Below, piece by piece: positions 17,220 through 48,246 of a DNA stretch of 64,000 nucleotides. The notes under the pieces are model-generated. The model saw only the letters and a program-made list of their open reading frames with translations, made no database searches and was not told where the DNA came from. The position numbers and the translations under genes were made by a program. The stretch is from Alphaproteobacteria bacterium UBA3760 (GTDB taxonomy: Bacteria > Pseudomonadota > Alphaproteobacteria > Rs-D84): contig DFGC01000005.1 of the NCBI GenBank assembly GCA_002371155.1, positions 20,024 through 84,023 on the forward strand. Direction: 5' to 3'. The number at the start of each line of letters is the position of its first letter. The first letter of the stretch is position 1.

Positions 17220-17293
17220 CGAAAGCAGATGGTGCCCTAAGCAAGAATCGGACTTGCGACTCGTCCTTACCAAGGACGTGTTTTACCACTAGA
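17220..17293 (-). tRNA. tRNA-Thr(GGU)-like gene with aberrant T-loop (TCCGATT) and imperfect D-stem; possibly a pseudogene or element-borne tRNA
   Basis: The reverse complement is GCCCTAATAGTCTAGTGGTAAAACACGTCCTTGGTAAGGACGAGTCGCAAGTCCGATTCTTGCTTAGGGCACCA. It has perfect 7-bp acceptor, 5-bp anticodon and 5-bp T stems, anticodon GGU, U33 and an encoded CCA. Position 55 is C, and one D-stem pair is mismatched. Confidence 0.45.
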
Positions 17294-17398
17294 CTATTAG
17301 GGCAACAGCGGTATTATACCTGTTCGCGGATAAAAATCAACATAAAAACCATTTTTTACTAGATTTTTATTTTTTTACCATTATAATGCGTTTTGTTT

Positions 17399-17573: not shown

Positions 17574-17601
17574 TTGACAATTTAATTTTTTGGTGTATAT
17601 T
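17574..17601 (+). promoter_or_regulatory. near-consensus sigma70 promoter (TTGACA-16-TATATT)
   Basis: Perfect -35 hexamer and a strong -10 element, 35 nt upstream of the GGAGG RBS and the ATG at 17635. Confidence 0.45.
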
Positions 17602-17634
17602 ATGCTCATAATAAAACATTTATGGAGGCAAAAT

Positions 17635-19389
17635 ATGTTATTAGTGAACATGGATAATGTACCACGTAGAGAGTTGAATAAATTGCAAATTTCGGAAATT
17701 TTGCATGGTATTATGCGTATGGAAAAATCATCAAATCCGGATAAATATGCCCGTTGTATGCCGGAATATAGTCGTTTTGTGTCACGGTATGCTTTTGCTG
17801 TAAATGGTGGTAAAATTAAAATTTCTGATAAAAACATTGTTGCAACGGTGAATTTTTTGGAAAAAATGTCAGGGAGTATTCCGTGTGAAGTTGAGTGTGT
17901 TGATAGTGCTGTATCTAAATTAAAGATACAATATGCCAATGCAATTATAAGCGGGCGTGTAAATGTACCAAAAAAAGATTTAAAATATGTAATTGATGGT
18001 TTTGAATCAGAATTAAGACGTAATAATGATGATAATAATGTTATAACATCTGCGCTGGAAAAAATCAGACCGTTATATCAAGAAATGTGTCAAGAAGATA
18101 AAGATGAATTTGTCCAAAATCCATCCAAAGTGTTTTTCGAAAAACAAAAAGAGCGTAGCGAGAAAAAAGAACAGTTGAAAAATTTAGGATTGAAGGAACG
18201 CATAAAAAAGAAAGTGGCGGGTGTGGCCCAATCGTGCGAGCAAAAAATTGCAGAAAAAATTGAACAATATAAAAATGTAGCACAACAAAAAGCACAAGAA
18301 CGTAAAGAAAAAGTTGCAGCAAAAAGGGAAAAACGCGAAGCAAAAACAGGTGTTTTAAAACCGTTGTTTGCTCGTGCCATGCCATATGCAGCAAGCGTTT
18401 TGTTGTTGGTGGGAATAACATTTGGTTTTTCGCAAGATTCAACGCATGCAGGTGAAACAGATGCATCGAATAAAGACAATAAAACAAAAGTTGCAAAACA
18501 AAACACCAAAAATAATGAAGAAAAAACATATATGGTATCTGAACAAGATTTGGCGCGTGCGAATGGTAATTTTGCTGTGCAACAATCTGAACCAGTTGTT
18601 AAAGATACGGTTGTCAAACACGACCAGAAAATTGCACCAAAACCGGTTGTTAAAAATAATGCAAATGTTAAATCGTCTGACAAATTTTATGATTCCAGAT
18701 TGGATAAATTCTTTGGAGATAAAAAATCTGATGTTTTGCAAAAAATACAAAATCGTATGCAAAATGTTGATTTGGGTGGTATCAGTGCAGAACGCGTTGC
18801 ATACACCATGGGGGTTTATTCGGCATATGGATATAATATCGATGTGTTGAATAATTTCGTAAATGGTGCGGAATTAAATTCAGACCAAATCAAAGAATTA
18901 AAATCTGTCATAGATTTGGCAAAACCACATGGAACCGGTGTTCGTGATTTGGCGGCGGCGCATATAACATCGCGTGAAATTCATGAAATGTGCGCATGTG
19001 GCGATAAATCAAGTGCCGAAAAAAAGATTGCGCAAGCAAAATCAAATGTTAAATCATCAAACGACAGTATTACAAAATCTGATGTGTTGAAAATGGTCAA
19101 CGATAATATCAAATGTGGTAAATCTGTGCTGAATCCAGATGATTCGGCAACATTGACTAAATTGTTGTTGCAAAATAATTTGGGGCCAGATGATTGTGCA
19201 AATATGACCAAATTGTTGTTATTGGCGGGTGTTGATAAAAATATTGTAAATCAAATCGTGCGTCAAAATAATTATTCGAATACTGTTTTAATGCCTGATA
19301 ATTATGTGCAGCGGCTTGAAAAACAAAGTGGTCAGAAAAAGCCAGTGTGGTATTCACGCTGTTTCAGAATATCACGGTATTCACGATAA
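17635..19389 (+). CDS. orphan lysine-rich coiled-coil protein with single central TM helix (hypothetical, possible secreted/effector-like)
   Basis: 584 aa. K/E-rich N-terminal half, the TM segment ASVLLLVGITFGF and a C-terminal half with no recognisable motif. It has a consensus promoter and RBS and is AT-rich. Confidence 0.5.
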   Translation: MLLVNMDNVPRRELNKLQISEILHGIMRMEKSSNPDKYARCMPEYSRFVSRYAFAVNGGKIKISDKNIVATVNFLEKMSGSIPCEVECVDSAVSKLKIQYANAIISGRVNVPKKDLKYVIDGFESELRRNNDDNNVITSALEKIRPLYQEMCQEDKDEFVQNPSKVFFEKQKERSEKKEQLKNLGLKERIKKKVAGVAQSCEQKIAEKIEQYKNVAQQKAQERKEKVAAKREKREAKTGVLKPLFARAMPYAASVLLLVGITFGFSQDSTHAGETDASNKDNKTKVAKQNTKNNEEKTYMVSEQDLARANGNFAVQQSEPVVKDTVVKHDQKIAPKPVVKNNANVKSSDKFYDSRLDKFFGDKKSDVLQKIQNRMQNVDLGGISAERVAYTMGVYSAYGYNIDVLNNFVNGAELNSDQIKELKSVIDLAKPHGTGVRDLAAAHITSREIHEMCACGDKSSAEKKIAQAKSNVKSSNDSITKSDVLKMVNDNIKCGKSVLNPDDSATLTKLLLQNNLGPDDCANMTKLLLLAGVDKNIVNQIVRQNNYSNTVLMPDNYVQRLEKQSGQKKPVWYSRCFRISRYSR

Positions 19390-19413: not shown

Positions 19414-19472
19414 TCTTAATACTTGCAAATTGTGTTTTGGGGTGTATGTTATATTTAACAAGAGGTGATAGT

Positions 19473-19802
19473 ATGCATGATATAAATGCGAAGTTCCAAC
19501 AAGTGTGTGCAAAACAACAACAAGAAAAAAACAGACGGCAACAAAGAATAGAAAAATATGCACATAACATTGAAGATTTTATGAATATTTATCAGATTGA
19601 AAAAACAGGACTGTGTTCCGAATTTGTTGCGTCGTATTATGCCAAGAAATGCCAAGAATTAGGTAATGCGGAGTTTAATAAAATAAAAAATCAAGCCCAA
19701 GGATATATCCGACATTTGGAAGTGTCTGGTCAGATAAGCGAACATATCAATTGGTTTAAGTTTGTTTTGGAAAAAGTTGGTGGTGGTTTTGAACGGTCTT
19801 AA
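19473..19802 (+). CDS. hypothetical small protein
   Basis: 109 aa from MHDINAKF with an RBS (AGAGGTGA). It is preceded by the TACTTGCAAATTGT promoter motif. Confidence 0.35.
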   Translation: MHDINAKFQQVCAKQQQEKNRRQQRIEKYAHNIEDFMNIYQIEKTGLCSEFVASYYAKKCQELGNAEFNKIKNQAQGYIRHLEVSGQISEHINWFKFVLEKVGGGFERS

Positions 19803-19808
19803 AATTAC

Positions 19809-19837
19809 TTGCAAATTGTATTTTTTGTGATTAAAAT
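19809..19837 (+). promoter_or_regulatory. putative promoter (TTGCAA-17-TAAAAT) within repeated TACTTGCAAATTGT motif
   Basis: The same 14-nt motif occurs at 19420..19433 ahead of the previous gene. This copy drives the aspS leader. Confidence 0.35.
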
Positions 19838-19844
19838 CTATTCT

Positions 19845-20055
19845 GATTTTATGGGCGCGGTGCCAATGATATGACTGACAACCATGGAGGCATCAAAACC
19901 CAATGTAAAGTGATAAATTCGGGTGGCACCGCGCGGTATTATATTCGCGCCCCGAAAATTCTAATGCTGGTGCCAAATATAAAATTTTCATTTGGTGCCA
20001 TAAAAACCCAATTTGCAACGGCGTTGGGGAACAAGAATAAAAAAAGGGACCAAAA
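19845..20055 (+). promoter_or_regulatory. structured aspS 5' leader with T-box-like core GGGTGGCACCGCG and four GGTGCCA/TGGCACC repeats
   Basis: A 13/13 match to the T-box consensus GGGUGGNACCGCG lies at about 19924..19936. An 11-bp perfect inverted repeat GCGCGGTGCCA...TGGCACCGCGC spans it. GACUGACA codons sit in the upstream arm. Confidence 0.35.
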
Positions 20056-21828
20056 ATGTTATCATTAAAATCTAAATACAGAACGCATACATGTGGCGAA
20101 TTAAATATTGCCAATGTTGGTGAAATTGTGACTTTGTCGGGTTGGGTACATCGCAAACGCGACCATGGGTCGTTGTTGTTTGTGGATTTGCGCGATAATT
20201 ACGGAATTACACAATGCGTGTTCGATGGTGGGGATGAAAATTTGGAAAAAATTCGCCCGGAATCGGTTATTAAAATTACTGGCAAGGTTGTCGCGCGTGA
20301 ATTGGATGCGATAAATGAAAAAATCCCAACCGGTCATATCGAGGTTCAGGCACAAAAATTTGATGTTTTAACCAATGCCGAAGTTTTGCCTTTCCAAGTG
20401 TTTGGTGACGAAGAAACATCCGAAGAATTGCGTTATAAATATCGGTTCTTGGATTTGCGGCGCGAAAAATTACACTATAATATTTTAATGCGCAATAAAA
20501 TGATGAAATGGTTGCGCGATAAAATGTGGGATTTGGGATTTTCAGAATTCCAAACACCGCTGCTTACCGCTGATTCGCCCGAGGGCGCGCGTAGTTTCTT
20601 GGTGCCGTCGCGGTTGCATCATGGTAAATTTTATGCGTTGCCCCAAGCCCCACAAATGTTTAAGCAAATGTTGCAAGTGGCTGGGTTTGACCGGTATTTC
20701 CAAATTGCGCCGTGTTTTCGTGATGAAGATTTGCGCGCCGACAGATTGTTGGAATTTTACCAATTAGATTTGGAAATGTCTTTTGTTGATTTACCAGATA
20801 TCCAAGCCGTGGGCGAAATTGTTATGCCGGAATTGGTAAAAACTTTTGCGCCAGATGCAAATGTTTATCCAACAATTCCGCATATTTCATATGATGATGC
20901 AATGTTGAAATATGGGTGTGATAAACCTGATTTGCGCAATCCGATTTTAATTTCTGATGTGACAGAAATTTTCCGCGGGTCTGAATTTGGAATATTTGCA
21001 AATGCGATTGAAAATGGCGCGGTGGTGCGTGCGGTGCCGGCACCGAATTCGGCGGACCGTCCGCGTTCGTGGTTCGATAAATTGGGTGAATACGCAACAA
21101 AAGAATTAGGCTTGGGGGGATTGGGCTATATTGTTTTTGCCGATGAAGCCAAAGGCCCGGTTGCGAAAAAGTTGGATGCGGCGCGTATCGCAAAATTGAA
21201 AGATATTGCGGGGAACAAATCATCGTTGTTCTTTATTTGCGATATGGTGGATGTCGCAGCGAAAGCGGCGGGTAAATTGCGCAATAAATTAGGCGTAGAT
21301 TTGGGTTTGGTAAACCCGCGTGATTTCGCGTTTTGCTGGGTTGATAATTTCCCGTTCTTTGAACCGGACCCGGAACGCGGTGGTGCGCCGGCGTTTACGC
21401 ATAACCCGTTTTCGTATCCTATTGTTGATTCAATCGAAGAATTGTCTACACGCGACCCGTTCACTATCAAGGCGGCGCAATTCGATATGGTGTTGAATGG
21501 CATTGAAATTTGCAGTGGTGGTTTGCGTAATTATAACCCAGATGTTATGAAAAAATGTTTCGAAATTGCCGGTTATCCATTAGAGGCAGTCGAGAAAAAC
21601 TTTTCTGGATTATACACCGCGTTTCAATATGGTGCGCCACCGCATGGTGGTTGTGCGTTTGGTATTGAACGCGTTGTGTCGGAAATTTTGGGCATTGGCG
21701 ACAGTGTTCGCGAAATCGTCGCGTTCCCGGCAAATCAGCGTGGTCAGGATTTGTTGATGGGGTCCCCGAACGAGGTGTCGGAACAACAACTGCGCGATGT
21801 GCATATTAAAATTCGCGAGAAAAATTAA
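20056..21828 (+). CDS. aspS: aspartate--tRNA ligase
   Basis: 590 aa class II aaRS. N-terminal OB fold with RTHTCGEL, motif 2 FRDEDLRADR and motif 3 GGGCAFGIERV. Confidence 0.9.
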   Translation: MLSLKSKYRTHTCGELNIANVGEIVTLSGWVHRKRDHGSLLFVDLRDNYGITQCVFDGGDENLEKIRPESVIKITGKVVARELDAINEKIPTGHIEVQAQKFDVLTNAEVLPFQVFGDEETSEELRYKYRFLDLRREKLHYNILMRNKMMKWLRDKMWDLGFSEFQTPLLTADSPEGARSFLVPSRLHHGKFYALPQAPQMFKQMLQVAGFDRYFQIAPCFRDEDLRADRLLEFYQLDLEMSFVDLPDIQAVGEIVMPELVKTFAPDANVYPTIPHISYDDAMLKYGCDKPDLRNPILISDVTEIFRGSEFGIFANAIENGAVVRAVPAPNSADRPRSWFDKLGEYATKELGLGGLGYIVFADEAKGPVAKKLDAARIAKLKDIAGNKSSLFFICDMVDVAAKAAGKLRNKLGVDLGLVNPRDFAFCWVDNFPFFEPDPERGGAPAFTHNPFSYPIVDSIEELSTRDPFTIKAAQFDMVLNGIEICSGGLRNYNPDVMKKCFEIAGYPLEAVEKNFSGLYTAFQYGAPPHGGCAFGIERVVSEILGIGDSVREIVAFPANQRGQDLLMGSPNEVSEQQLRDVHIKIREKN

Positions 21829-26837: not shown

Positions 26838-28610
26838 TTATTTCCTTAATAAACTTTGCACCGCCAATGGAAAATCGTTCGATTTTGCCAGGTATGAACC
26901 ACTGATTAAAAAATCTGCGCCGGCATTCCAACATTTTTGTGCGGTTTCTGGATTTATTCCGCCGTCCACAGATATTATGTATTTTAATCCATGTTTTTTT
27001 CGTGTTGTTGATAATGCCAATATTTTCTGTAATACAGATGTGTTAAATTCTTGGCCTGATGCGCCGGGGGCAACCCCCATAACCATAACTTCATCAACAT
27101 CACGCAAAATCGGAACAAGTTGTGTTATTGGGGTGTCTGGGTTTATTGCGACACCCGCGCGACGGCCCGTTGCACGAATCCCGCGTAATGCCGCACGAAC
27201 CCCAGTCGTGTTTAATGATAAAATAATTGTGTTCGCCCCAGCCTTTATCGCGTTTGCCGCCCAGACCGATGGGTTTTCGGTCATTAAATGAACATGTAAA
27301 TGAAAGTTTGTGTTTGCGCGGATTTCTTTTAATTCGGCAATACCGCCGGCAACATGCGGAACATAAAATCCGTCCATTATATCAACATGTATTGTTGATA
27401 TGCCGGCGGATGCAAATAATTTATATGTCATTGGTGATAACATATTAAAGCATAATGTTGATGGTGCGATTGGTATAAATTTTGGCTTTTGTTTTTTAGG
27501 TTTTCGCACAAATATTTTCGTGATTTTATTTATGAATTTTTCGTGGCGTGCCATGCGTGCCATATATGCGTCGCGCGCAGGTTTTTCCGAATCCCATATA
27601 TAATTAGAAATTGCTGTTATGGTTGCGTCGGCATGATGATTTTCAATCGGTAATCCAAATGCGTTTCCGACAAAGTCAACCACACCTTGGATTTGGGTGC
27701 CGCCGCCACTGATTATTATTTTGGTTGGTTGATATTTTGCAACATGTGGTTCGGCAGATTTTTTGATTTCTCCGATAATATCAACAATGCGTGGAACAAC
27801 AACATCGTTCACATCGCCGCGTGTGAAATCATATGCGGTATCGGCGGGGGTCATGCGGTCCATTGCGCGTGGAATTAAATTTGCAACCATGCGTTTTATG
27901 CGTTCGGCTTCGTCAAAATCGATATTTAATGATTTTGTTAAATCGTTTGTTGCGTTGGACATGCCCATAGGAATTTTTTCGTGCCAACATACACCGGAAT
28001 CGTTCCAAATTGAACATCCGGAAAATTCTGCGCCCATGTCGATAAACATTACGGTTTCGCCCGCGCGACGCAAAGTCATATTTTGCAAATATGCCGGGTC
28101 AAAAACACCGTCATATTGAATATGTGTTTTTCGCAATATGGATATAATTTCGTTTATGCGGTCGGTTTCATAACAAATGATTCCAAAAGTTGATATCAAT
28201 TGATGGTCGGTGTATCCCACCGGGGTTTGGATTTTTCGTGCAGATGCCGTATCGTATTGAAATGGCATTATGTGAATTGGTGTAAATCCCGACGGAAATG
28301 TCAATTTAGAAATCTGGGCACGAATATCACCATCGGTGATTTTATGCTCGCCGTTCCAAACGGTGTTTTGTTGTTGGTGCATAAATACAGATTTCCCAAA
28401 ATTCCCGGTTATGTATGCCGATTCAAAATGTGTGTTTAATTCATGCTCTAAATTATCAATTACTGATTTTATGGCAAATTGTTGGTTAAAACTGTCGCAC
28501 ATGGCGGTTGCGGATTTTACGATTTTTCCAGAAATCACACGATGCGCAATTCCGCGAACACATGATGTTCCGATGTCCAGACATAAAAAGCATGAATCAA
28601 GCAAGTTCAT
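26838..28610 (-). CDS. FtsA (actin-like cell-division ATPase) fused in-frame to ribulose-phosphate 3-epimerase (Rpe)
   Basis: The N-terminal 370 aa or so carry the FtsA motifs (LDIGTS phosphate-1, FIDMGAEFS phosphate-2, IISGGGTQIQG adenosine) and end in an amphipathic KFINKITKIFVRK helix. The same frame, without a stop or start codon, continues into an Rpe domain (IAPSTL..., HVDIMDGFYVPH, HLHVHLM, GADFLISGS). Confidence 0.6.
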   Translation of the reverse strand: MNLLDSCFLCLDIGTSCVRGIAHRVISGKIVKSATAMCDSFNQQFAIKSVIDNLEHELNTHFESAYITGNFGKSVFMHQQQNTVWNGEHKITDGDIRAQISKLTFPSGFTPIHIMPFQYDTASARKIQTPVGYTDHQLISTFGIICYETDRINEIISILRKTHIQYDGVFDPAYLQNMTLRRAGETVMFIDMGAEFSGCSIWNDSGVCWHEKIPMGMSNATNDLTKSLNIDFDEAERIKRMVANLIPRAMDRMTPADTAYDFTRGDVNDVVVPRIVDIIGEIKKSAEPHVAKYQPTKIIISGGGTQIQGVVDFVGNAFGLPIENHHADATITAISNYIWDSEKPARDAYMARMARHEKFINKITKIFVRKPKKQKPKFIPIAPSTLCFNMLSPMTYKLFASAGISTIHVDIMDGFYVPHVAGGIAELKEIRANTNFHLHVHLMTENPSVWAANAIKAGANTIILSLNTTGVRAALRGIRATGRRAGVAINPDTPITQLVPILRDVDEVMVMGVAPGASGQEFNTSVLQKILALSTTRKKHGLKYIISVDGGINPETAQKCWNAGADFLISGSYLAKSNDFPLAVQSLLRK

Positions 28611-43482: not shown

Positions 43483-45063
43483 ATGAATATGAATAATATG
43501 TTGGAAATGGCTGTTCGGCAATGGCCCGAAAATCTGTTTCTGGTGCGCGAAGGTGTTTCGTATTCTGAATTTATGGATATGGTGCGCGCGCGCGCGGTGA
43601 CATTGATGGACAACGGGATTAAACCCGGGGATACGGTCGGTGTGTTATCACATAATATTCCACAATTTCCATTGACGCTGTTTGCGATATGGTATGTTGG
43701 TGCGAAATGTTTGATGCTGGATACGAATTTAACACCGTTTGAATATGATAATATGGCGGATGCCGCCGGATGCAAATTTGTGTGCGCGGAATCGTCGTTT
43801 TTCTATAAAACGGATAAATTCAAATTTATCGATATTACCGCCAAAGATGGTCCGGTAAATCCGATGCTGCATCCATATAATTTCCAAGACAACGATGTTG
43901 CAACATTGTCTTTTACATCTGGGTCAACAGGCGTGCCCAAAATTGTGCCATTGACACACTATAATTTAATAGAGTGTGCAAATTCGTTGGAAGATATGGC
44001 GGAATATTTTGGTTCGGGTGATATTATGTATGGATTTTTACCACTGTATCATATATTCGGTTTTGCCATTGGAATTTTGGCGACGGTGCATTTTGGCGCG
44101 GGTATCGTGTTGCAACCAACAATAAATCCGAAATACATTTTGGACGATTTCAAAAAGTTCCGTCCGCATGTGATTCCGGCTGTGCCACGGTTATGGGAAA
44201 TGTTCAGAAATAAAATTATGGACAATCTGAAAACGCAAAAAAAATGGAGTATCGTCGATTTTATTTTGCGTAATCGTGTTCGTATAAATGATATGGGGCT
44301 GGGATTTTTTGTTCGTAAAGTCCAAGAACCAATTTTGGATATTTTCGGTGGTCGTGTGCGTTTGTTGATTGCCGGTGGTGCCGCCACCAAGCCCGAGGTT
44401 GAAACATTTTACGAAAACCTGGGGTTGGCATTTATCCAAGGTTATGGTTTGACGGAAACGGTTGGTCCAATTTGTATATCAAAGCCAAATAAAAAACGTA
44501 TGGCGTTTTCTGTGGGGGCGCCAACAACAAATAACGAGTGTGAAATTCGTGATAAAGACGAAAATGGCATTGGGGTTTTGTGGCTGCGTGGACACCAGGT
44601 TTTTGGCGGATATATGAATAATGACGCGGTGAATAAAGAGGTGTTCGATGAACGCGGGTTCTTTAATACCGGGGATTTGGTGTATATGGACAAAAATGGC
44701 GAATTGCACTTTGCGGGGCGTAAAAAACAGGTCATCGTTCTGGATAGTGGTAAAAATGTTTATCCAGATGAATTAGAGGCTATGTTTTTGGATATCCCGG
44801 GTGTTAAAAATGTCGCGGTGTTTGAACATCGGGTCAAAGACAAAACGGTTGCATACGGCGTGTTTTCGGTCGATAAGGATATGACAATGGAAAAATTGGT
44901 TGCCGAGGTTAGTGCGGCAAATAAAAAGGTTGCATCGTATAAATGGGTGACCCATTTTGCAATGACAACTGATGATTTGCCGATGACATCAACCCAGAAA
45001 ATAAAACATCATGTTGTTCGTCAAAATTTAATTGATGGTAAATATCCAATTAGACATGAATAA
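43483..45063 (+). CDS. adenylate-forming enzyme (acyl-CoA/acyl-ACP synthetase-like, ANL superfamily), paralog 1
   Basis: Motifs TSGSTGVPK, GYGLTETVG, TGDLVYMDKNGELHFAGRKK. 526 aa. Confidence 0.65.
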   Translation: MNMNNMLEMAVRQWPENLFLVREGVSYSEFMDMVRARAVTLMDNGIKPGDTVGVLSHNIPQFPLTLFAIWYVGAKCLMLDTNLTPFEYDNMADAAGCKFVCAESSFFYKTDKFKFIDITAKDGPVNPMLHPYNFQDNDVATLSFTSGSTGVPKIVPLTHYNLIECANSLEDMAEYFGSGDIMYGFLPLYHIFGFAIGILATVHFGAGIVLQPTINPKYILDDFKKFRPHVIPAVPRLWEMFRNKIMDNLKTQKKWSIVDFILRNRVRINDMGLGFFVRKVQEPILDIFGGRVRLLIAGGAATKPEVETFYENLGLAFIQGYGLTETVGPICISKPNKKRMAFSVGAPTTNNECEIRDKDENGIGVLWLRGHQVFGGYMNNDAVNKEVFDERGFFNTGDLVYMDKNGELHFAGRKKQVIVLDSGKNVYPDELEAMFLDIPGVKNVAVFEHRVKDKTVAYGVFSVDKDMTMEKLVAEVSAANKKVASYKWVTHFAMTTDDLPMTSTQKIKHHVVRQNLIDGKYPIRHE

Positions 45064-45088
45064 ATGGTTTTTATAAAGGAATATAAAA

Positions 45089-46669
45089 ATGAATATGTAT
45101 GAATTGTTGGAAAAAAATATAAAAAGAAATCCGAAAACGGTTTTCTTGGTGCGTGAAAATATTACTTTTGAAGAATTACCAAAATATGTGCGTGCGCGCG
45201 CAACTACATTGGCCAAGGCGGGTATAAAACCCGGTGATACGGTTGGGTTGTTGTCGCATAATTTGCCTGAATTTGTGTTCAGTTTGTTCGCAATTTGGTA
45301 TTTGGGTGCGCGTGTTTTGTTGTTGGATACAAATTTGACTTCGGTTGAATATGATAATATGACGGAATTGACCGATTGTAAATTTGTTGTTGCGGAAAAG
45401 TCTTTCTTTTACAAAACAAAAAATTTCAAATTTATCGATATCCAGGCCCCAGATACCGAAACAGATGAATCGTTGAAACCGTATAAAATCAAAGATTCTG
45501 ATATTGCGACATTGTCGTTCACATCGGGTTCGACGGGAACACCAAAAATTGTGCCGTTGACACATAAAAATTTGGTTTCTTGTTCGGAAAGTTTGGAAAG
45601 TTTGAATATATTTTTGCGCCCGGGTGAAATGCTGTATGCGTTTTTGCCGCTGTATCATGTGTTTGGGTTTGCCGTTGGATTTTTGGCACCATTGCATTTT
45701 GGTATGGGTATGTTGTTGCAATCAACAATCAATCCAAATGCAATTTTGCAAGATTTTGCAAAATATAAACCACATGTTATTCCGGCGGTGCCGAAATTGT
45801 GGGAAATTTTCCGCAAGAAAATCATCGATGGTGTGCGCGAAAAGAAAAAATGGTGGTTGGTGTCTTTCATTATGAATCATCAAAAAACTTTGCGTGCAAT
45901 CGGTTTGGGCAAATTGGTTGATAAAGTATTGAATCAAATTCGTGCGGTGTTTGGTGGTCGCGCCCGTTGTTTGGTCGCAGGTGGTGCCGCAACCAAGCCC
46001 GAGGTTGAAAAATTCTATACTCAATTAGGGATGGATTTTGTCCAAGGTTATGGTATGACCGAAACGGTTGGACCAATCTGTTGTTCGAAACCGGTTAAAA
46101 AACGCGTTCCGTTTGCGTTTGGTGCGCCGTTGGGTGATTGCTGTTGCGAAATTCGTAATGCTGATGAAAATGGTATCGGTATGTTATGGGTCAAAGGCAA
46201 CCAGGTGTTCGGTGGGTATCTGAATAATGACGCGGCGAATAAAGAATGCTTTGATAAAAACGGATTCTTTTGCACGGGGGATTTGGTGTCGATAGACAAA
46301 AATGGTGAATATCATTTTGCTGGTCGTAAAAAACAAGTCATTGTTTTGGATTCGGGTAAAAATGTCTATCCTGATGAATTAGAAGGATTATTCATCGAAA
46401 TCCCGGGTGTTAAAAATGTCGCCGTGTTCGAGCACGAGGTCAAAGGCAAAACTGTATCATATGGTGTGTTTTCGGTTGAACCGGATATGACCATGGAACG
46501 GTTGTCTGCGGAAATTGCCCAGAAAAATAAAAAGGTTGCGTCATATAAATGGGTGACCCATTTTGCGATGACGACTGATGATTTGCCGGTGACATCCACA
46601 CAAAAGGTTAAACATCATGTTGTGCGTAAATATTTAATGGATGGTAAATATCAAGAAAAGGATATTTAA
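45089..46669 (+). CDS. adenylate-forming enzyme, paralog 2
   Basis: The same motif set (TSGSTGTPK, GYGMTETVG, TGDLVSIDKNGEYHFAGRKK). It lies 25 nt after paralog 1. Confidence 0.65.
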   Translation: MNMYELLEKNIKRNPKTVFLVRENITFEELPKYVRARATTLAKAGIKPGDTVGLLSHNLPEFVFSLFAIWYLGARVLLLDTNLTSVEYDNMTELTDCKFVVAEKSFFYKTKNFKFIDIQAPDTETDESLKPYKIKDSDIATLSFTSGSTGTPKIVPLTHKNLVSCSESLESLNIFLRPGEMLYAFLPLYHVFGFAVGFLAPLHFGMGMLLQSTINPNAILQDFAKYKPHVIPAVPKLWEIFRKKIIDGVREKKKWWLVSFIMNHQKTLRAIGLGKLVDKVLNQIRAVFGGRARCLVAGGAATKPEVEKFYTQLGMDFVQGYGMTETVGPICCSKPVKKRVPFAFGAPLGDCCCEIRNADENGIGMLWVKGNQVFGGYLNNDAANKECFDKNGFFCTGDLVSIDKNGEYHFAGRKKQVIVLDSGKNVYPDELEGLFIEIPGVKNVAVFEHEVKGKTVSYGVFSVEPDMTMERLSAEIAQKNKKVASYKWVTHFAMTTDDLPVTSTQKVKHHVVRKYLMDGKYQEKDI

Positions 46670-46671
46670 TC

Positions 46672-48246
46672 ATGAATATGTACCAATTCTTTGAACAAAC
46701 CATGGAAAAGTGTCCAACGACACTTTTCCTGGTCAGGGAAAAAATTAGTTTTGCCGATTTTCCAAAACTGGTTCGGGCGCGTGCAACAACATTGAAAAAG
46801 ATTGGTGTGCAATATGGTGATACATTGGGGGTGTTGGCGCATAATATTCCTGAATTTATAACTACTTTGTTTGCGGCGTGGTATCGTGGCGCACGCGTTT
46901 TGTTATTGGATACGAATTTAACAAATTCAGAATACGATAATATGACGAAATTGACCCAATGCAAATTGGTCGCGGCGGAAAAATCTTTTTTTTATGATGC
47001 GGCGGGGTTCGAATTTTTCGATATTCAAACGGTTGATGATGAAACCGACCCTGAATTAAAACCGTATCCGTTGGATGCAAATGATATTGCAACTTTGTCA
47101 TTTACATCGGGTTCGACGGGAACACCGAAAATCGTGCCATTGACGCATTTTAATTTAATAGAGTGCGCAAATTCGTTTGATGATTTTAACCAATGGTTTC
47201 AGCCGGGTGGGGTGCTGTATGGGTTTTTGCCGTTGTATCATATATTTGGTTTTGCGGCGGGATTTTTGGCACCGTTGCATTTTCAAATGGGAATTTTGTT
47301 GCAACCGTCAATAAATCCAAAATTGATTTTGTCTGATTTCAAAGAATATCGGCCGCATGTGATTCCGTCTGTGCCGAAAATGTGGGAATTGTTCCGCAAA
47401 AAAATTATTGAAGAAATCAAGGCGCAGAAAAAATGGTGGATTGTATCGTTCATATTGAAAAATCAAAAATGGTTGCAGAAAATTGGTTTTGGTTTTATCG
47501 TGCGACGCGTGCAAAAGCAAATTTGTGCGGTGTTCGGGGGGCGGGTTCAGTTGATGATTGCCGGTGGTGCCGCCACCAAGCCCGAGGTTGAAAAATTCTA
47601 TAACGATTTGGGTATCGCGTTTATCCAAGGTTATGGCATGACCGAAACGGTTGGTCCGTTTTGTGGTTCGCGCCCGGTGAAAAAGCGTATCCCGTATGCG
47701 TTTGGCGCGCCGTTGGGAAATAACGAGTGTGAAATTCGCGATAAAGATGAAAATGGTATCGGTATGTTGTGGGTGCGTGGACACCAGGTTTTTGGTGGGT
47801 ATATGAATAACGATGCCGCCAATGCGGAATCTTTTGATGAACGCGGATTTTTCTGCACTGGGGATTTGGTGTATATGGACAAAAACGGCGAGTTGCACTT
47901 TGCTGGTCGTAAAAAACAGGTCATCGTTCTGGACAGTGGTAAAAATGTTTATCCCGATGAATTAGAGGCTATGTTTTTGGACATTCCGGGTGTTAAAAAT
48001 GTCGCGGTGTTCGAACATCAGGTCAATGGTAAAACCGTTGCGTATGGTGTGTTTTCGGTTGAACCCGATATGACAGCAGATAAATTGAGCAAGGCGGTTG
48101 CGGATGCCAATAAACGCGTTGCCAAATATAAATGGGTGACGCATTTTGCGATGACAACGGATGATTTGCCGATGACATCGACGCAAAAGGTGAAGCATCA
48201 TCTGGTTAAACAGAATTTAATCGATGGCAAATACAACGAAATATAA
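46672..48246 (+). CDS. adenylate-forming enzyme, paralog 3
   Basis: The same motifs. It lies 2 nt after paralog 2. About 100 nt near its 3' end is nearly identical to paralog 1. Confidence 0.65.
   Translation: MNMYQFFEQTMEKCPTTLFLVREKISFADFPKLVRARATTLKKIGVQYGDTLGVLAHNIPEFITTLFAAWYRGARVLLLDTNLTNSEYDNMTKLTQCKLVAAEKSFFYDAAGFEFFDIQTVDDETDPELKPYPLDANDIATLSFTSGSTGTPKIVPLTHFNLIECANSFDDFNQWFQPGGVLYGFLPLYHIFGFAAGFLAPLHFQMGILLQPSINPKLILSDFKEYRPHVIPSVPKMWELFRKKIIEEIKAQKKWWIVSFILKNQKWLQKIGFGFIVRRVQKQICAVFGGRVQLMIAGGAATKPEVEKFYNDLGIAFIQGYGMTETVGPFCGSRPVKKRIPYAFGAPLGNNECEIRDKDENGIGMLWVRGHQVFGGYMNNDAANAESFDERGFFCTGDLVYMDKNGELHFAGRKKQVIVLDSGKNVYPDELEAMFLDIPGVKNVAVFEHQVNGKTVAYGVFSVEPDMTADKLSKAVADANKRVAKYKWVTHFAMTTDDLPMTSTQKVKHHLVKQNLIDGKYNEI

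Follow-up and report, generated by a model that had tools for sequence, protein, structure and literature searches.

T-boxes are treated as a Gram-positive hallmark, and the locus described here raises the question of whether one of them controls an aminoacyl-tRNA synthetase gene in an alphaproteobacterium. The stretch of DNA that was analysed, hereafter the window, comprises 64,000 nucleotides of a contig (DFGC01000005.1) assigned to Alphaproteobacteria bacterium UBA3760. It carries aspS (20056..21828), which encodes a 590-aa aspartate--tRNA ligase of the bacterial type (NF001750 score of 703.6 bits, cut-off 443) and is the proposed regulated gene. The T-box core GGGUGGCACCGCG is located at 19921-19933, 123-135 nt upstream of the aspS start at 20056; all coordinates refer to the + strand unless stated otherwise. 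The initial annotation had offered two explanations for this leader, a compact T-box-like tRNA-sensing RNA or a set of GGTGCCA repeats serving as operator sites for a protein regulator. As judged from sequence and its conservation, the aspS leader is most likely a sensor of uncharged tRNA-Asp or tRNA-Asn that acts on translation.

In the published surveys consulted, the only proteobacterial T-boxes are the deltaproteobacterial leuA leaders of Geobacter and Pelobacter (PMC2494555), and the search for the translational class in TBDB covered only Actinobacteria (PMC7778990). No report of an alphaproteobacterial T-box was found in full-text literature searches.

Related leaders were collected by an AspRS protein search, which returned 80 loci with 74-93% identity, labelled Candidatus Enterousia or uncultured Alphaproteobacteria and originating from rumen and gut. 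Together with the window, they form the alignment of 81 leaders on which the following analyses are based. The placement of Enterousia is Alphaproteobacteria incertae sedis. An AddB of the alphaproteobacterial type, also encoded in the window, agrees with placement in the Alphaproteobacteria. A separate AspRS protein search returned only close relatives (at least 87% identity) and did not reveal the phylogenetic limit of the element.

A sigma-70-like promoter sequence, TTGCAA-17-TAAAAT, was observed at 19809..19837, with a predicted transcript start near 19845, and the TTGCAA hexamer occupies the equivalent relative position in many related loci. At other loci a tRNA-Thr gene abuts the leader instead, and in many loci the leader lies directly 3' of a tRNA gene. 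Genes for tRNA-Asp and tRNA-Asn were absent from the window and from the 60 related loci scanned, and no second aminoacyl-tRNA synthetase gene was present among the 28 window ORFs scanned, which included all those of at least 400 aa.

The perfect match of the core to the T-box consensus, reported in the initial annotation as 13 of 13 positions about 125 nt upstream of aspS, was confirmed. The sequence GGGTGGCACCGCG occurs once in the window (19921-19933), with 0 mismatches (13/13) to GGGTGGNACCGCG. Four further window matches to GGGTGGNACCGCG carry 2 mismatches each, against a chance expectation of 3.3 for such matches. In the relatives, GGGUGGCACCGCGC was present at 80 of 80 loci, and likewise GGGTGGCACCGCGC, with a distance to the start codon of aspS of approximately 100-170 nt on the 5' side. 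Without variation in any of the 80 related leaders, the core represents a conserved element and not a chance match.

The core lies within a helix (19919..19955) in which the arrangement of outer segment A1, bulge and inner segment A2 aligned to the antiterminator of the Rfam T-box model RF00230 with near-maximal posterior, and which corresponds to a T-box antisequestrator helix. A1 is formed by UCGGG (19919-23) and CCCGA (19951-55), with covarying outer pairs; the 7-nt bulge UGGCACC (19924-30) belongs to the T-box core; and A2 pairs GCGCG (19931-35) with CGCGC (19946-50). The 3' strand of the helix, 19946-19955, is designated C1. Across the 81 leaders, the two outer A1 pairs were paired in 100% of cases, with four and three pair types, and the closing pair of the helix was AU, CG, GU or GC and never broken. 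A further A1 pair was among the top mutual-information columns (CG in 58 leaders, UA in 18 and UG in 5).

The T-box core, a sequence of the type AGGGUGGNACCGCG on the 5' strand of the helix with its 7-nt UGGNACC bulge, was invariant in 81/81 leaders, and the N of UGGN was C in every one of them. Both tRNA-Asp and tRNA-Asn carry G73, so the invariant UGGC fits a tRNA of this kind.

Upstream of the bulged helix, a second conserved domain, Stem I (19853..19901), was defined by covariation in the 81 leaders, and both stems of it were recovered by RNAalifold unaided. Its basal pairs, GGG (19853-55) with CCC (19899-901), extend the C-stem (19859-64 / 19889-94), in which all 6 pairs have changed on both sides across the leaders. 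The C-stem is followed by a K-turn recognized from its sequence pattern, with the bulge AAU (19865-67) next to tandem G.A pairs (19868-69 / 19887-88); by the same pattern, all 81 leaders have the G and A on the 5' side, and the 3' GA is kept in 78/81. Above it lies the NC-stem of 4 bp (19870-73 / 19883-86), two pairs of which covary.

The NC-stem is closed by a 9-nt terminal loop, ACUGACAAC (19874..19882), which contains the specifier GAC (19877-19879) and, directly 3' of it, a purine (A at 19880). Of the 81 leaders, 68 have GAC (Asp) as the specifier and 13 have AAC (Asn), so that A and C are invariant in the alignment, and the triplet agrees with the synthetase encoded downstream; the following base was A in 79 leaders and G in 2. 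The initial annotation had noted a tandem of Asp codons in this region, of which the second GAC proved to be conserved and the remainder did not. The inner 7 nt of the loop, CUGACAA, fit the Y-Y-NNN-R-A pattern of an anticodon loop, from which we infer a loop-loop contact between the specifier loop and the anticodon loop of the tRNA. Specifiers ending in C are the preferred kind in TBDB (PMC7778990).

The switch between GAC and AAC was scattered over several types of leader and Shine-Dalgarno sequence, as if either tRNA served as an acceptable read-out. Alphaproteobacteria are mostly devoid of AsnRS and employ a non-discriminating AspRS together with GatCAB instead. Both tRNA-Asp and tRNA-Asn would be AspRS substrates if the enzyme encoded here is non-discriminating.

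The 5' domain was also evaluated statistically. Pair counting over the 81 leaders gave 90.8% of cells paired, compared to 74.4% in shuffles, and the covariation score reached 0.464, compared to 0.185 in shuffled alignments and at most 0.12 with slid partners. RNAalifold without guidance returned the same four helices, and the top mutual-information pairs were the same pairs. No extra long-range pairing was detected in the 81 leaders by either mutual information or RNAalifold.

Several modules of the canonical T-box were absent. No distal Stem I platform was found in any of the 81 leaders, the 9-nt loop being placed directly above the 4-bp NC-stem, and Stem II, the IIA/B pseudoknot and Stem III were missing, with only about 18-25 unpaired purine-rich nucleotides between Stem I and A1. 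This interval includes the purine-rich linker AAAGUGAUAAAU (19907..19918), which consists of conserved alignment columns and occupies the site of Stem II, IIA/B and Stem III in canonical T-boxes. RF00230 aligned the AAAGUG of the linker to the AGuG just before Stem III, with Stem III itself deleted.

These absences were reflected in the covariance-model searches. At gathering thresholds, Rfam recognized only tRNAs in the window, while at relaxed thresholds RF00230 was the sole sensible match. Its score was 27.3 bits against a gathering score of 93; the bulged helix was aligned perfectly, while the model's Stem III was dropped entirely and its Stem I lost about 87 positions. When RF00230 was applied to 14 diverse relatives, 13 scored 19-32 bits and one gave no match. 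With family scores in this range and a threshold of 93, standard annotation misses the leader. A covariance model built for the element itself, R1, found one copy in the window with 120 bits and nothing else there.

The two defining interactions of the class, a specifier matching the regulated gene and a bulged helix of the UGGN type, nevertheless place the element among the T-boxes, and on the conserved sequence features we assign it there despite the sub-threshold RF00230 score and four missing canonical modules. The proposal of a compact T-box-like tRNA-sensing leader, one of the two made in the initial annotation, is thus supported by the conservation and covariation of the bulged helix and the specifier-bearing Stem I in the 81 leaders. 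Taken as a whole, the reading of the leader (approximately 19845-20055) as a member of the T-box riboswitch lineage that senses tRNA-Asp or tRNA-Asn and relays the signal to the Shine-Dalgarno sequence (SD) through the two arms of a downstream hairpin, G2 and C2, is regarded as likely. Confidence is high for tRNA sensing and moderate for the predicted G2/C2 relay.

As for the mode of control, no terminator-like hairpin with a U-tract was observed in the leader (19845-20055), and in the absence of an intrinsic terminator, control is probably translational. The initial annotation had suggested fold prediction as a way of recognizing a terminator or alternatives sequestering the SD; two candidate SD-sequestering schemes were found, between which the energy models do not decide. 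In the first, C2 pairs with the SD while G2 occupies the bulge, and in the second, C1 pairs with the SD. Covariation between C2 and the SD favours the first.

The elements involved are located downstream of the bulged helix. Hairpin 2 (19968-20000 in the window), present in 81/81 leaders, consists of the 5' arm G2, UGGUGCCAAAU (19968..19978), and the 3' arm C2, AUUUGGUGCCA (19990..20000). G2 includes GGUGCCA (19969-75), the exact complement of the bulge UGGCACC, and C2 is the proposed anti-Shine-Dalgarno segment. The region of the SD and the aspS start, AAAGGGACC (20043..20058), contains GGGACC at 20046-51 and the start codon at 20056-58. Between C2 and the SD, a facultative hairpin CCCAA...UUGGG (20007..20028) occurs as a single copy in the window; inserts resembling it were found at the same spot only in leaders L005, L011, L013, L016-18, L034 and L035.

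A marked difference in conservation was observed between the two arms of hairpin 2. The G2 core GGUGCC was present in 77/81 leaders, with an entropy of approximately 0 bits, while C2 occurred in 31 variants, the entropy over four of its positions being about 1.3 bits each. That one arm is invariant while the arm facing it drifts implies a second partner for both: for G2 something equally invariant, either the bulge or C1, and for C2 the drifting SD, which together would amount to a relay. Changes in C2 are accompanied by changes in the type of SD (GGGACC, GGGUGU, GGGGUC and others), examples being GACACC or GGCACC with GGUGU (GACACC with GGGUGU), UCGCC with GGCGA, GGUUCC or G(U)NCCC with GGGACC, and GGUGUCC with GGAAACC. 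Several C2 variants mismatch G2 yet match the local SD.

The co-variation was also evident in duplex energies. The duplex of C2 with its own SD had a mean of -6.83 kcal/mol, compared to -5.79 +/- 0.18 kcal/mol for permuted combinations, and none of 5000 permutations was as low, in a test that is inflated by kinship among the leaders. The duplex of the bulge with G2 comprises 7 bp with -13 to -14 kcal/mol and is stronger than G2:C2 or G2:C1. As G2, the bulge and C1 never vary, pairing among these three segments is not amenable to proof by covariation.

On this basis, the following mechanism is proposed. The loop codon, GAC here and AAC in some relatives, would pair with the anticodon of tRNA-Asp or tRNA-Asn, and the 3'-terminal GCCA, free in uncharged tRNA, would then pair with the UGGC of the bulge. 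Without tRNA, G2 (GGUGCCR) would lie on the bulge and C2 would be released, so that the C2:SD duplex blocks initiation (OFF). With uncharged tRNA on the bulge, G2 would return to C2, the SD would be free and more AspRS would be made (ON).

Thermodynamic modelling gave mixed results for this relay. In constrained folds of the 81 leaders, the bulge:G2 state with a paired SD was isoenergetic with the antiterminator state (mean +0.13 kcal/mol), and in this state the partner of the SD was C2 in 61/81 leaders. Against the relay, forcing the antiterminator raised the unpaired fraction of the SD only from 0.44 to 0.48. A state that retains hairpin 2 and pairs the SD elsewhere was the best OFF state in 60/81 leaders and lay on average 2.4 kcal/mol below the antiterminator state. 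Altogether, the constrained ON/OFF energy comparisons single out no one OFF state.

These energies bear on the second scheme, which corresponds to the usual three-segment platform of translational ileS leaders in Actinobacteria: the sensor is the same, C1 (GCGCCCC) pairs directly with the SD in the absence of tRNA, and hairpin 2 is a constant spacer bringing both into contact. The C1:SD duplex had a mean of -7.2 kcal/mol, as good as that of C2:SD, and in unconstrained folds with a paired SD, C1 was the commonest partner (24 leaders) and G2 remained on C2 in 58/81. The state with hairpin 2 kept, being the more stable by the mean difference of 2.4 kcal/mol given above, speaks for the same scheme, as does the layout of the aspS leaders of Nocardioidaceae described below, which is exactly this one. 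It leaves unexplained, however, the invariance of G2 (77/81) beside 31 variants of C2, as well as those C2 variants that fail to match G2 but match the local SD. Moreover, with hairpin 2 kept, the SD had no consistent partner, as 27 leaders used C1, 40 used other segments and 14 had no partner, and SDs of the GGGACC type obtain only a 3-bp CCC/GGG contact from C1. Pairing of C1 with the SD in place of the relay is considered less likely than not, but it is a serious rival and the strongest of the competing explanations.

A second alternative is that the structure is a T-box-like relic which no longer senses tRNA and has a constitutive mRNA-stabilising or processing role after the tRNA-Thr gene. 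Such a role would suit the position of the leader directly after a tRNA gene at many loci, and the leader is without elements thought necessary for tRNA affinity (PMC7583486). The residues predicted to contact the tRNA (UGGC, the A and C of the specifier and the next purine) are, however, invariant down to 74% AspRS identity, and the sole specifier change, GAC to AAC, is meaningful for tRNA choice, which makes a relic very improbable.

Lower still is the probability of attenuation by a terminator and antiterminator as in Firmicutes, the mode of most known T-boxes (PMC7583486). The bulged helix is indeed the canonical antiterminator element, but the missing terminator hairpin and U-tract speak against this mode, and the sequence 3' of hairpin 2 in related leaders is rich in A and shows no U runs.

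The GGTGCCA repeats emphasized in the initial annotation do exist, although at slightly different positions: on the + strand at 19859, 19969 and 19994 (not 19861, 19963 and 19993) and on the - strand at 19924 (not 19927). Coordinates in that annotation were off by 1-6 nt in general. The RNA structure accounts for all four copies, the - strand copy at 19924 being the bulge, 19969 G2, 19994 C2 and 19859 a strand of Stem I. The copy at 19859 is a covarying strand whose sequence differs in every lineage, and C2 reads GGUGCCA in this genome because GGUGCC self-pairs through G.U wobbles.

In the whole window, 17 copies of GGTGCCA were counted, compared to 7.6 +/- 2.9 expected from shuffling, and comparison of the copy positions with the ORF list placed the 13 copies outside the leader within long ORFs in every case. 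That the repeats are DNA sites for a protein regulator of aspS is the least probable of the alternatives. Four copies fall within 142 bp and the window-wide count exceeds the shuffle expectation, but only the G2 copy and its complement, the bulge, are conserved across the 81 leaders. The first copy, as part of a covarying stem, takes many different sequences and the last (C2) has 31 variants, more than one + strand copy is not seen in most relatives, and the 13 other window copies lie in ORFs, not promoters. Among the + strand copies, G2 alone is conserved in sequence, and the variation of the others follows RNA pairing. The initial annotation had stated that an operator would be favoured by the lack of a significant T-box covariance match and of a specifier-bearing Stem I, together with GGTGCCA upstream of unrelated genes. 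The RF00230 score is indeed below threshold (27.3 against 93), but a Stem I with a specifier exists, and no GGTGCCA was seen upstream of other genes in the window, the copies outside the leader being inside ORFs.

The 11-bp perfect inverted repeat spanning the core was likewise found, at 19855-19865 and 19924-19934 instead of 19856-66 and 19928-38, and it is not conserved. It is lineage-specific, no other leader among the 81 exceeding 7 bp, and it dominates the single-sequence minimum-free-energy fold of the window. That fold, in which the T-box is paired with the Stem I strand through the repeat, was rejected as the general structure, as the repeat is unique to the lineage. The repeat may add a lineage-specific competitor to the switch.

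The small ORF at 19871-20068, suspected in the initial annotation to be spurious, begins inside the specifier stem, and the A of its start codon (alignment column 37) is present in only 23/81 leaders, from which it follows that the ORF is spurious. Three features had not been foreseen at that stage, namely the restriction of the 11-bp repeat to one lineage, the alternation of Asp and Asn specifiers and the putative two-step translational relay.

Comparison with known systems places the leader apart from each of them. With the canonical RF00230 T-boxes (Bacillus subtilis tyrS, glyQS) it shares the 5'-strand T-box helix with the 7-nt bulge UGGNACC, the K-turn at the base of Stem I, a specifier and purine matching the synthetase and the position in the leader of an aminoacyl-tRNA synthetase gene. 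In contrast to them, it is without the elbow-contacting Stem I platform, Stem II, IIA/B, Stem III and a terminator, its specifier lies in a terminal loop and not in an internal loop, and its host is an alphaproteobacterium.

The translational T-boxes of actinobacterial ileS genes, such as those of Mycobacterium (Sherwood et al. [quoted passage not shown] They retain Stem II, IIA/B and Stem III, however, none of which is detectable in the aspS leader; their sequestrator is directly the 3' strand of the bulged helix, while here the extra G2:C2 hairpin seems to act as a relay; and they respond to Ile, not Asp/Asn, in a different phylum. Translational T-boxes with a truncated Stem I are known mostly from Actinobacteria, where Stem II is essential (PMC7583486), and Stem II is absent only in glycine T-boxes (PMC11297988).

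A metagenome scan was performed for the same Stem I and T-box architecture with a specifier whose middle base is not A, codons with A in the middle being excluded. It returned 19 stretches, almost all of which were judged to be false positives from coding sequence, and gave no evidence for other specificities among specifiers with a non-A middle base. One stretch, L091, was considered as a member of other specificity and found unconvincing (14.7 bits, E 0.22 with R1).

The same scan also uncovered leaders in front of a gene for archaeal-type aspartate--tRNA(Asn) ligase in Nocardioides and Marmoricola (L087, L101-L104). These Nocardioidaceae leaders share with the present one the 9-nt hairpin loop CCUGACAAC or close variants of it, the bulge UGGCACC and an AspRS gene downstream. 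Unlike it, they are high in G+C, have no K-turn, carry a Stem III-like hairpin and precede an archaeal-type AspRS; they possess a classic sequestrator, CACCUCCAGG / CCUGGAGGUG, over GGAGG, with no G2:C2 relay. They gave no RF00230 match at E <= 1. In the sequences compared, candidate Asp specifiers in a hairpin loop thus occur in two phyla, and only the Enterousia group has the predicted G2:C2 relay.

For the alternation of specifiers, a precedent is reportedly available from Clostridium acetobutylicum, in which Saad et al. 2012 (cited in PMC4574755) are said to have described an Asn-specific T-box acting on tRNA-dependent asparagine formation. This would be a T-box reading tRNA-Asn over an AspRS/amidotransferase route, and the AAC specifiers in 13 of the leaders suggest a similar logic. 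The clostridial element is full-length, transcriptional and from a Firmicute, in contrast to the leader described here.

A more far-reaching reading would make the element the smallest natural T-box yet seen, fixed across a clade of gut and rumen Alphaproteobacteria and composed of a mimic of an anticodon stem-loop and a mimic of the acceptor end, G2, competing for the bulge. In it, the 7-nt loop Y-Y-RAC-R-A would kiss the anticodon loop of tRNA-Asp or tRNA-Asn with neither an elbow platform nor Stem II, the GCCA of the tRNA and the cis-encoded G2 (GGUGCCR) would compete for the bulge, and the second hairpin would relay the outcome to the ribosome-binding site. The reason for the toggling of the specifier between Asp and Asn would be that both tRNAs are served by a single AspRS. 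This combined reading is put forward tentatively, as a possibility of somewhat less than even standing.

The presence of a conserved T-box in an abundant alphaproteobacterial group of the gut and rumen means that curated models miss diverged members of the family, and it would extend tRNA-sensing regulation to a new bacterial class. A sensing domain of approximately 110 nt, with none of the accessory contacts to the tRNA that are regarded as necessary, makes the long-standing question of the minimal RNA that reads both the identity and the charging state of a tRNA directly testable, and it may provide a compact part for engineered tRNA-responsive switches. For the organisms themselves, the alternation of GAC and AAC would represent a natural experiment on the feedback control of an enzyme that serves two tRNAs.

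In the window leader, the 5' strand of Stem I (19855-19865), the hairpin that bears the specifier, is perfectly complementary over 11 bp to the T-box (19924-19934), a match seen in this lineage only. The energy of the corresponding duplex was -25 kcal/mol in the window, compared with a family median of -9 kcal/mol. This pairing could act as an extra competitor against Stem I and the bulged helix.

Between C2, the proposed anti-Shine-Dalgarno arm, and the Shine-Dalgarno sequence lies a facultative hairpin, CCCAAUUUGCAACGGCGUUGGG (20007-20028), which occurs as one copy within the window and whose 3' arm is itself Shine-Dalgarno-like. Similar inserts (CCCACUUCGCCAAGGCUUCGUGGG and variants) were found at the same spot in only eight scattered related loci.

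Another complementarity was observed in one clade, comprising related loci L008-L010, L013-L015, L017, L018, L020, L023, L025, L038, L040, L052, L053, L071, L076-L078, and L081. There, the bulged helix carries a loop, AAAUCUUA, to which UUAAGAUUU, a short way 5' of the hairpin 2 arm G2, is complementary; the two may form a pseudoknot or another alternative pairing. Loop complementarity of this type was absent from the window leader.

A conserved T-box-like leader also precedes the archaeal-type aspartate--tRNA(Asn) ligase genes of Nocardioides and Marmoricola, at 885-1050 on the minus strand of locus L087 and at 520-712 in loci L101-L104. One hairpin of this leader has the loop CCUGACAAC and another resembles Stem III; the leader also has the UGGCACC bulge, and its Shine-Dalgarno sequence is covered by a sequestrator. 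No match was obtained in these leaders in a search with the Rfam T-box family RF00230 at E <= 1, and the actinobacterial T-boxes described in the literature found were those of ileS only.

Elsewhere in the window, three paralogues of about 525 aa each are arranged in tandem at 43483-48246, with matches to acyl-CoA/adenylate-forming ligase families, all of them under the family cut-off. In a single ORF of 590 aa on the minus strand (26838-28610), residues 44-337 form an FtsA/PilM-like N-terminal part and residues 381-585 a C-terminal ribulose-phosphate 3-epimerase part; the ORF represents either a fusion or two genes joined by ORF-finder read-through. A weak, sub-threshold match to Rfam Phe_leader (35860-35937; 32.7 bits vs 55), downstream of a tRNA-Gly/tRNA-Tyr pair, is probably due to chance. 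The G+C content of the window is about 35-43%, and GC skew across 1-64000 is strong and uniform to an unusual degree, being positive in all 4-kb bins (+0.06 to +0.29).

The tRNA-Thr gene of the window (17230-17303, minus strand) lies 2.5 kb from the leader on the opposite strand, with two intervening ORFs (17590-19389 and 19437-19802) that had no family matches. Many related loci have a tRNA-Thr(GGU) gene on the strand of the leader, ending 10-20 nt 5' of it, as at 1248-1321 in L055 and 1243-1316 in L032. Given this proximity and shared orientation, the leader may be co-transcribed with the tRNA in such loci and then freed by tRNA processing.
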